Positions 40,377 through 43,300 of a DNA stretch of 64,000 nt are shown piece after piece. The stretch is taken from assembly GCF_964355755.1 (NCBI RefSeq), contig NC_092676.1:27608871-27672870 (forward strand), written 5' to 3'. Below the pieces are notes generated by a model. It made no database searches, had not been told where the DNA came from, and saw only the letters and a program-made list of their open reading frames with translations. Source of the stretch: Antedon mediterranea. Lineage: Eukaryota > Animalia > Echinodermata. Position 1 is the stretch's first letter. Every line of letters starts with the position of its first letter. Position numbers and translations under genes: made by a program.

Positions 40377-43300
40377 ATGTCTCGTCTTGGAACCTGGCAG
40401 ATTGTGATGTTTTCTACTATGTTTGTTGGATATACGCTTTACTATTACAATCGTAAAAGCTTTTCCTTCATCATGCCATACGTGATTGAGGAAGACAATT
40501 TTGATAAACCAACTCTAGGTGAGTACTCATTATTATCCAAAAACAATTCTCCTCCCTCCTCATCTGTTCATTATTCAATGATAAATGCCTACATTTGACA
40601 GCCTGACTACATTCTGCATACATCTCATAGACTATCTTCTCGCAGACATGCTTTAGGGTTTGCGAATGGCCAGTCCGAGTTTCCAAATACCCATTTTTTC
40701 AGCCGTAGTAAGTATAAGCTTCCATGTGATACAGTTTCATAATGCTTTCCTCCTCTTGAATATAAATGCCTACTGGTGCAGTGCGAAACATTGAATTAAT
40801 AATTTTATCTCAATTTCTTCTTTAACTAACAGGTGCAATTACTAGCAGTATCTATATGTCATATACACTGAGTAAGTTTGCAGGTGGAATTATGTCTGAT
40901 AAGGTCAACGCAAGCAGGATGTTCCCATTTGGACTCCTTGGTGTTGGATTGCTTGTGGTGGCATTCACGCTGTGCACATCGTTGAAGATGATGGTGGTTG
41001 TTTGGTTCGTGCAAGGTCTCTTTCAAGGTATGGGGTGGCCAGCCTGTGGCAAACTATTAAAAAAGGTAATTTTTTAAATGATGATTTATTTATTTTAGGA
41101 TATTTCAGGTTGTTTTTGTGGAAGATGCTATTGTTAATTTCCTGGTGACATTGGTTCTCTTTTTGTTTTGTATATGGTTGTACTATTGCTGGTTGCATGT
41201 TTTACCAGCCTTTAGTTCTTTAACTTATCACGTTTTTTTGGCAACCTCATTTTTATTTTTTCTTCTTAGAAAAGGACTTTTGAAGCTTTCTTCAAACCAA
41301 ACTGTAACACACATTTCAAAATTCTTTCATTTAAATCATTTAAGTTCAAGAAATTCTTCCAGCTTTTCATCTTTTTTTAAAATCTTTAGGTATACTTTAA
41401 TTTCAGTGGTTTCCGCCCTCAAAGTTAGGAATATATTGGAGCTTGCTGTCAACGAGTATGAACATAGCCGGGGGCGCTGGTCCAGTAGTAGCAGCCCTGC
41501 TATCGTCTTCATACGGGTGGCGTACCGCTCTACAAGCCTCTGGTAAATATCTCGGTTTATGTACTACCATTAACACATTACGTACGTTATGTTCTTCTAG
41601 TGGTTTCCACCATATCGGTTTGGCACTTACTGGAGTGCATTGGCAACTAGTGGCAACGTGGCTTGTAGTGTTGGACCACTGCTAGCCCTTCCATTAGCCG
41701 AGAGTCGTGGCTGGCGTACGTCCATGCAGGTTTCAGGTAAAAAATGTTTCAATTGGTGGTCACTCAACCATTTAGCTTCAACCCATGTCATTCCTGAGTA
41801 CCTTCATTCATATTTGTTTTGAGCAGGTAAGTATTGTAGAAGCGCAGTTTAGTTACTTTTTTTGTACTGGCCATACTGTAGTAGTGCACACTTTTACCTA
41901 CTGTAGTATCATTTCTCAAAACATGGTTTATTTTTTATTTTTAAATTTCAGTACATCTTATTTATTACTAACAATTTTTTAGAAACTTTTGAAACATGCA
42001 TGTTTTCATTATTAAGTGATCTTTTTTTTCTTTATTACAGTACTATAATTACTGTACATATTCAATGTTAATATTACCATTTAGTTTAATTGTGTAAGCA
42101 ATATACATGGATTGATACATCATATATGAGAATAGCTACTTTCATTGTTAATATTTTTGTATTATAGATGATTTATATCTCCGTCTTAACTTTTCTGTTT
42201 AAGCATAATGACACTCAATGTTGTCCGGGACACTATCAAACTTTATGTGACAAAACAAATGTGATGTGCTAATATATGGACATGATGATGTCATATCACT
42301 ACCATATTTGGCCATATCACTATCATATTTGGTAGCATCACACTTTTTTGTTGTCATACTAGACAGAGCTTTTAGCTTTGTCATAGTACTGTACCATGAT
42401 TTTTTGCATGTTGCTACCCCCCTCCCCTCCAAATTCTGTACCTGATGCATTGTACTTGGTGTATAATTATTTCTTATCTTCTTATTACTATTACTGGTTA
42501 ATGAATCTGTATACATACACTGTCAACTCTCTGAAAACCGGAAACTCTCCCAAAACCAGATATTTTTTTTTAGGTCCAAGAGGGACCAAATTCTTTTTTT
42601 CTAGTAAAAACACATTCTAAATACTTTAAAGAAAACCAAACATATTAGGCCTGCCCAAAGGTAACTTTCTTTTGGAGAGTTGACAGTAATTGTGATATCG
42701 TATATCCACTTTTTTTAAGATGTTTTTTTTCTTCTTCAGGACTGGTAGCGATTTTTGTATCTTTTCTTTCATTTTTTATACTTAAGGAAAGTCCATCAGA
42801 AGTTGGAATTGAAACTGCCTTCACTCATTATAAGAAAAAGAAAGGTATATGTCATGTATACTCTGTAAAAATTAGGAAGAAAGCTTCAAGTCTAGTATCC
42901 AAGTTCTACATTCTAATAATCAACGTTTCATTTAATAAGTGTTTTAAATTTTCTTATAATTGTATATTGTTCTATTTAGACACGTCTGAACCTACGTCAG
43001 TAATCGATGTAGTACGAACGCCTTTTCTCTGGGTTTTGATAATTTACTGTTTATTAAATATATTCATGGCTAACGCAATATCAGACTGGGGTCAGCTATA
43101 TCTTATACAAGAGTTGAATTACTCTCCTACTACAGGTAAGCATTATGTTATGATGTTCAGTTCCCAAATATGGTAGTGATGTGCCCAAATATGGTAGTGA
43201 TGTGCCCAAATATGGTAGTGATGTGCCATCATCATGTTTATATATGGGCACATCCCATTTTCTTGTCACATAAAGTTTTATACAGTAGTGTAGACAGGCC

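Follow-up and report, generated by a model that had tools for sequence, protein, structure and literature searches.

Mutually exclusive exons that arose by tandem duplication form a known class, which is enriched in membrane proteins and has often evolved convergently (PMC9741552). Human solute carriers provide four examples, SLC25A3, SLC7A2, SLC39A14 and SLC12A1 (supplement of PMC8373072), in all of which adjacent homologous exons swap a membrane segment. Among the described mechanisms of mutual exclusion, the steric one, with less than 50 nt between donor and branch point, applies to 9% of clusters, and frame shift applies to 60% (PMC5740500). A limit of about 50 nt between donor and branch point is also given in PMC7969005.

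For human G6PT, the product of SLC37A4, structures from 2025-26 assign W138, S142 and M145 of TM5 to the subsite for the glucose ring, where alanine mutants lose transport. W138 and S142 form hydrogen bonds with the ring and M145 is in hydrophobic contact with it (PMC12552596, PMC12857678). For S142A, one study found a loss of transport of at least 70% and the other a complete loss (PMC12552596, PMC12857678), and M145A was also impaired (PMC12552596, PMC12857678; PMC12748760). Inhibitor contacts include F134, G135 and W138 (PMC13411879). The human SLC37A4 splice event found in print is skipping of exon 7 (PMC12766210). SLC37A4 had no hits in the searched supplements of two human catalogues of mutually exclusive exons (PMC5740500, PMC8373072), and no such exon in this gene was found in the mostly open-access literature covered. 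Within that scope, the result agrees with the original prediction, by which a mutually exclusive exon is not known to have been described for SLC37A4.

Here we analyzed a stretch of 64,000 nt (the window; all positions are counted from its first letter) from the crinoid Antedon mediterranea. It contains an SLC37A4-like gene with a real, selected and unannotated duplicate exon, which is a new case of this known mechanism. The explanation that we favor on balance is that the tandem TM5 exons are spliced singly and would give rise to two carriers of 425 residues, with a predicted difference in selectivity or affinity at the sugar subsite.

Anatomy and splicing of the exon pair

The gene model comprises ten exons, two of which, 3A and 3B, are copies of the exon that encodes TM5.

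40377..40518, + strand: coding exon 1; ATG; TM1; equivalents of Y21, R28, K29 and S32; joined to exon 2 in record 1 of run X1
40833..41065, + strand: exon 2; TM2-TM4; Y60, K64 and W118 retained, Q56 replaced by I; common upstream donor; X1 record 1 ends at 41065
41407..41542, + strand: exon 3A; TM5 and start of TM6; W138, S142 and M145 retained; F134L, T136I; X1 record 2 from 41405
41543..41600, + strand: intron between 3A and 3B; 58 nt; candidate branch A at 41573; no significant hairpin
41601..41736, + strand: exon 3B, the second copy; W138, F134 and T136 retained; S142A, M145G, G149C, G150S; absent from the RefSeq protein
42740..42844, + strand: exon 4; common downstream acceptor
42980..43135, + strand: exon 5; TM7; Y233 replaced by C, F237 by I, K240 by A; D245 retained
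43338..43423, + strand: exon 6
43869..43982, + strand: exon 7
44221..44359, + strand: exon 8; TM10-11; I346 replaced by Q, N374 by G; H366 retained
44850..45016, + strand: last coding exon, stop codon included

Both copies are 136 nt long, are preceded by AG and followed by GT, and are entered in phase 0 and left in phase 1. They align without gaps and are identical at 75/136 nucleotides and 24/45 amino acids; their flanks show only background-level likeness (11/30 bases on either side). When the window was searched with the ten exon queries, 3A and 3B were the only exons to match one another (E 5e-15), and no second copy of any other exon of the gene was found in the window, where the remaining non-self matches had E values of at least 0.06. 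Because both exons lie in one contig in three DNA runs (X2, X3 and X5, all from one sample), an assembly artefact is ruled out. The gene model yields 425 aa from 3A alone or from 3B alone. The translation of the 3A form is identical, letter for letter, to P0001, a protein named SLC37A4-like in Antedon mediterranea, and the two RefSeq accessions hold one sequence, that of the 3A protein. In the model, a transcript with both copies reaches a stop after aa 186 and is not productive, and a transcript with neither copy stops after aa 127. The original prediction of two 136-nt exons with like phases, intact splice sites and open frames, of which inclusion of both or neither would shift the frame, thus held in all these respects. 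Measured against the description of mutually exclusive tandem exons in PMC5740500, 3A and 3B are adjacent, homologous, of like length and frame, and equipped with compatible splice sites. Exon 3 corresponds to residues 126-170 of the crinoid protein and the TM5 helix to residues 129-161 of the structural model; the exon, said to encode TM5-TM6, contains the whole of TM5 but reaches only some 8 residues into TM6.

The 58-nt intron includes the motif CATTAAC, with a candidate branch A at position 31 of the intron (41573). The intron has a single AG, at its end, and no other A lies beyond position 47. The predicted steric mechanism agrees with this geometry, which falls within the rule of less than 50 nt from donor to branch point, but the rule comes from vertebrate work, the branch point is a candidate only, and the frame shift alone would suffice. 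The mutually exclusive anatomy, with its short intron, frame-shifting double inclusion and intact copies, is well founded. The copies are likely to be used one at a time, and exclusivity would be doubly enforced, by a donor-to-branch distance that is too short and by the shifted frame that results when both copies are included, with decay as the likely outcome. RNA structure did not emerge as an exclusion mechanism in the three regions folded (z 1.03, -0.46 and 0.71); no complementary pairs of at least 12 nt touched either exon, and Rfam gave 0 matches in 40000-45500.

To follow the splicing of 3B, we used the contigs, instead of reads, of a single run, X1. This run is RNA, as judged by its spliced records, with exons 1 and 2 contiguous in record 1 and exons 4, 5 and further ones contiguous in record 5. 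Record 1 comes to an end precisely at 41065, the donor of exon 2, record 2 begins at 41405, the point where a join from exon 2 would merge with the genomic path, and record 3 is aligned from 41599 with 20 non-fitting letters ahead. Under an assumed assembly k of 31, a contig that starts where the exon 2>3A and exon 2>3B paths diverge would carry 22 letters of exon 2, below the 31-letter bridging rule, of which 2 match the acceptor AG and 20 would remain loose. Record 3 would be expected to start at 41596 if joined from exon 1 and at 41600 if joined from 3A; the observed 41599 fits exon 2. The contig ends at 41065, 41405 and 41599, together with the 20-letter overhang, are an exact geometric fit to the junctions exon 2>3A and exon 2>3B; from this geometry, and not from the letters of the overhang, we infer the latter junction. 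No junction of 3A or 3B into exon 4 was found among the displayed X1 contigs, and records 2, 3 and 5 continue into intron; the 3A>exon 4 junction is contained in the RefSeq protein. The expectation that 3B is spliced is borne out in part, by contig geometry at its upstream side, and no downstream junction of 3B was seen. A 3A>3B contig was not found in X1, where depth bin 41536-41702 leaves no room for one, although contigs show presence, not absence. A depth remainder of 162 in bin 41369-41535, considered as an exon 2>3A junction contig, was discounted, as small extras also occur in two DNA runs, and contig depth is not a basis for ranking the isoforms. Coverage by X1 extends to both ends of intron 3 (41737-42182 and 42531-42739) and to part of intron 2, while record 5 lacks intron 4; the introns on either side of 3A and 3B may undergo late splicing or retention.

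Several other elements were observed in the window. A very high-copy short repeat, with a summed depth in the hundreds of thousands, occurs in four copies of alternating orientation in introns 3, 5 and 7 and at the 3' end (42230-42348, 43163-43264, 44018-44136 and 45088-45158). Inverted pairs of these copies, 85-89 nt long, lie on either side of exons 4-5 and of exons 6-7, and might base-pair within the pre-mRNA. An element at 42519-42687 is bounded by a perfect 13-nt inverted repeat, is repeated elsewhere by depth, and looks like a MITE. The repeated stretch at 44405-44515, of raised depth, is similar to the conserved central domain of SINEs of the Deu/Nin type and has no Rfam match. A homocysteine S-methyltransferase gene has exons at 54393-55174 on the + strand (PF02574, E 1.8e-07). 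An open frame of 250 residues at 48169-48921 on the - strand has a signal-like start, one likely membrane helix, an acidic tail and no Pfam match, and tandem repeat arrays at 27439-27853 and 46157-46604 yield open frames on both strands.

Gene identity, constraint on 3B and the sugar pocket

Human SLC37A4 was the top match for 6/6 exons searched, and exon 3 aligns with human G6PT residues 128-172, with exon position 1 equivalent to human W128. The predicted model of the 3A form (pLDDT 87) has the same fold as human G6PT (PDB 9kv0, 9ugu and others), with a TM-score of 0.92 and 39% identity. The gene is a crinoid SLC37A4-like carrier of the MFS fold, and its best sequence and structure match is G6PT. 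The crinoid protein retains the N-domain phosphate contacts Y21, R28, K29, Y60 and K64, as well as S32, W118, D245 and H366. On the other hand, Q56, Y233, F237, K240, I346 and N374 are all replaced in exons common to both Antedon forms, the C-domain contacts Y233, K240 and N374 being C, A and G, and the human mutants K240A, Y233A, Q56A and N374A each impair G6PT (PMC12748760). Human G6PT ends in the di-lysine ER retrieval signal KKAE, of which the crinoid C terminus has the lysine at -3 alone, together with an arginine at -5. The view that both forms are ER sugar-phosphate carriers was not supported, as worded, by this comparison: because these residues are replaced in the common exons, the substrate of either crinoid form is not fixed as G6P. 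All four aligned echinoderm SLC37A4-like proteins (P0001-P0004), which form a clade (SH-aLRT 99), have A or S in place of the basic residue at 240 and likewise lack Q56, Y233 and F237, and N374 is G in both crinoid proteins; the stretches of the window concerned are 42982-43134 and 44221-44359. The solute of these echinoderm proteins, with either exon, may not be G6P.

We then compared the two copies for signs of constraint. Identity between 3A and 3B by codon position was 27, 33 and 14 of 45; synonymous sites are saturated (pS 0.83), pN is 0.32 and dN is 0.41, and 16 of the 21 identical degenerate residues are encoded by different codons. Against a profile of 18 non-crinoid homologues, which themselves score 73-155, 3B scored 109, 3A 129 and the Anneissia exon 111. 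When the same 61 changes were placed at random in stop-free mutants of 3A, 0/5000 reached the score of 3B, and the best scored 48. At the 21 differing positions the family fit is better in 3B at 8 and in 3A at 12, with one tie; family conservation is 0.70 at positions common to both copies and 0.53 at differing ones (p 0.006). F134 and T136 are retained in 3B and lost in 3A, which argues that 3B is constrained in its own right. In 20000 runs of a neutral-copy simulation without indels, the frame and the splice dinucleotides survived in 2.8% of copies at a divergence of 0.5 and in 0.5% at 1.0; with an assumed indel rate, survival was below 0.1%. These comparisons indicate that 3B is under purifying selection, as had been anticipated. 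3B is known from one species, Antedon mediterranea. A word-index protein search with 3B gave no 3B-like protein among 16 candidates, and none of the 32 hits of a HMMER search was 3B-like, the best being 58% identical over 40 aa. Two of the HMMER hits (P0031 and P0042) were dropped as spurious repeats.

The expectation that this exon lines the cavity is supported by the human contacts of W138, S142 and M145 with the glucose ring (PMC12552596, PMC12857678). At these three positions 3A has W, S and M, and 3B has W, A and G. In 47 other distinct animal exon peptides, S142 occurs in 44 and A142 in none; position 145 is M in 37, S in 6, A in 2, V in 1 and I in 1, and never G. The contrast drawn originally, in which 3A keeps and 3B alters the pocket helix, is borne out by S142A, M145G, G149C and G150S in 3B, which also retains G135 and N146 in addition to W138, F134 and T136. 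Overall, the cavity contacts differ between 3A and 3B at 3/5 sites, which is no more than the whole TM5 (14/26). Human M145 aligns with His165 of GlpT through a bacterial homologue (file position 164, one behind the numbering of the paper), as the original prediction had it, and GlpT has N at the position equivalent to 142. In the proposed mechanism, the 3A pocket would keep the W138/S142/M145 triad. The 3B pocket would lack the hydroxyl at 142 and the methionine side chain at 145 and, judged by the human mutants, would be wider and poorer at binding a glucose ring.

A second lineage with the doubled exon

A scan of metagenome contigs returned 14 loci with the TM5 exon out of 63 pattern matches. 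In 12 of them (L003-L014) a second full copy of 136 nt, with AG and GT intact, lies 170-666 nt upstream. These loci are close kin with 10 distinct exon pairs and were counted as one event. L002 has a single copy between the neighboring exons, and the contig of L001 ends 80 nt past the exon, so that its downstream side cannot be judged. L001, L002 and L005-L007 have an additional intron within the region that corresponds to crinoid exon 2. In the 7 of 12 loci that remained when near-duplicates were left out, dN/dS was 0.19 and 0.22 for the upstream and downstream copies, respectively, and pN was lower than pS in 21/21 pairs for each. In 5/7 of the inter-copy introns examined, the first 40 nt contain the motif CTAAT at a distance of 20-37 nt from the upstream donor, with a U-rich tract after it. 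As a lead only, these introns might use an early branch point, as in OGDH; many AG follow the CTAAT.

Both exon types also occur in full-length proteins. P0012 and P0013, from different species, are sisters outside the exon (SH-aLRT 98) and are 66% identical there and 44% identical within it. P0012 carries the upstream type (100/96) and P0013 the downstream type (99/96), in each case as a single in-frame copy. W138, S142 and M145 are present in 9/9 peptides of the upstream type, with G135A and T136S; the downstream type has Y138 in 10/10 and N or G at 142 in 10/10. Y233, R240 and N374 are retained in both proteins. P0012 and P0013 fall in an open group with an annelid and molluscs, and the second lineage is likely, from its sequences, to be one annelid lineage. 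The source label of P0013 is gregarine, which we read as carry-over from its worm host. No exon 3 swaps were found in the isoform clusters of Patiria (P0003/P0021) and Dimorphilus (P0053/P0066), or in the P0044 and P0048 clusters.

With respect to age, 3A is identical to the Anneissia exon at 28/45 residues and to 3B at 24/45. Since 3A is nearer to the Anneissia exon than to 3B, the sequences suggest that the crinoid duplication may predate the split of the two families (Antedon, Anneissia). In the exon tree, the Anneissia and sea-star exons cluster with 3A (87/80) to the exclusion of 3B, which sits on a long branch (0.92). The AU test rejected none of five groupings (p 0.21-0.39), nor two earlier ones (p 0.23 and 0.27), 45 columns being too few. 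The crinoid and second-lineage pairs are probably of independent origin, because C149 is common to both second-lineage copies and their single-copy relatives and because P130 and Y137 are common to both crinoid copies. Pulling the other way, 3B shares C149-S150-V151 with the downstream type of the second lineage.

Readings of the second copy and comparison with known systems

We consider it likely that both full-length forms are made and that the copies are mutually exclusive, and we lean towards a 3B form that is a working carrier with altered selectivity or affinity, as predicted from its pocket. Because RefSeq lists only the 3A form, the 3B form would be a minor or tissue-restricted one. 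It is unlikely that both forms are made and 3B transports weakly or not at all, so that it would act as an off-switch, a partner subunit or a phosphate-only path with no new sugar. The severe effects of human S142A (transport abolished or cut by at least 70%) and M145A speak for such a role, as 3B is altered at both sites, and the human G6PT structures include dimers by their entry titles. However, 3B keeps W138, N146, F134, G135 and T136 and scores like real orthologues (109 vs 73-155), the crinoid pocket is already remodeled in the common exons, so that the effects of the human mutants may not transfer, and N or G at 142 in the second lineage, with N in GlpT, shows other residues at this site.

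We regard it as quite unlikely that 3B is joined to exon 2 but is unproductive, with intron 3 kept, and tunes the level of 3A by way of a half protein of 198 residues or decay. X1 record 3 is indeed unbroken from 3B to 42018, record 5 passes from the intron into exon 4, a transcript read through at the 3B donor is predicted to meet a stop at residue 198, and RefSeq has no 3B form. Nevertheless, 3A runs on equally, although 3A>exon 4 is in the RefSeq protein, and the missing junctions may be an assembler effect; moreover, constraint at the protein level extends along the whole of 3B, which is unexpected for a poison exon, AATAAA and ATTAAA are absent from intron 3, and the second lineage has both exon types in full-length proteins. 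The idea that 3B is a dead, unused relic of an old exon duplication is highly improbable. It would account for the lack of annotation, the long branch in the exon tree, the unique changes at conserved sites and the single crinoid genome from which 3B is known, but it is opposed by the low neutral survival (2.8%-0.5% without indels, below 0.1% with them), the synonymous excess, and a contig geometry that fits the exon 2>3B join.

Beyond the preferred reading of two carriers, a broader one is tentative: the TM5 exon could be a substrate-switch module of invertebrate SLC37A4, in which the upstream copy keeps the triad and the downstream copy drops S142. Splicing would then, and this too is doubtful, toggle between a G6P-type pocket and a pocket for a different solute. 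Such a module would have originated either in the bilaterian ancestor, with loss in vertebrates, or twice at the same exon.

In Antedon, selection has retained an alternative exon altered at two of the sites that bind the glucose ring, and a distant lineage did likewise with the same exon; that the downstream copy loses S142 in both lineages adds to the interest. The isoform pairs are natural and otherwise identical controls for selectivity in the GlpT/G6PT family, and point to a second solute or to a throttle controlled by splicing. The echinoderm proteins, which have lost K240, allow a direct test of what G6PT does outside vertebrates.

Compared with known systems, the SLC25A3, SLC7A2, SLC39A14 and SLC12A1 pairs are vertebrate events in other transporter families, whereas the Antedon case belongs to an invertebrate member of the MFS organophosphate:phosphate antiporter family. 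In OGDH, the branch points for exons 4a/4b lie 25-41 nt from the upstream donor, below the limit of about 50 nt, as here; they were mapped and lie far from the acceptor (PMC7969005), whereas the Antedon intron measures 58 nt in total and has a predicted branch point. The closest functional analogue is coq-2, in which the mutually exclusive exons 6a/6e remodel helices adjacent to the substrate (PMC7434440, where mrp-1 is cited as an independently evolved case). There the gene product is an enzyme and the substrate switch has been shown, whereas for SLC37A4 it is predicted. Like SLC37A4, coq-2 combines one exon of conserved type with one of deviant type in several phyla, with single versus repeated origin undecided (PMC7434440).
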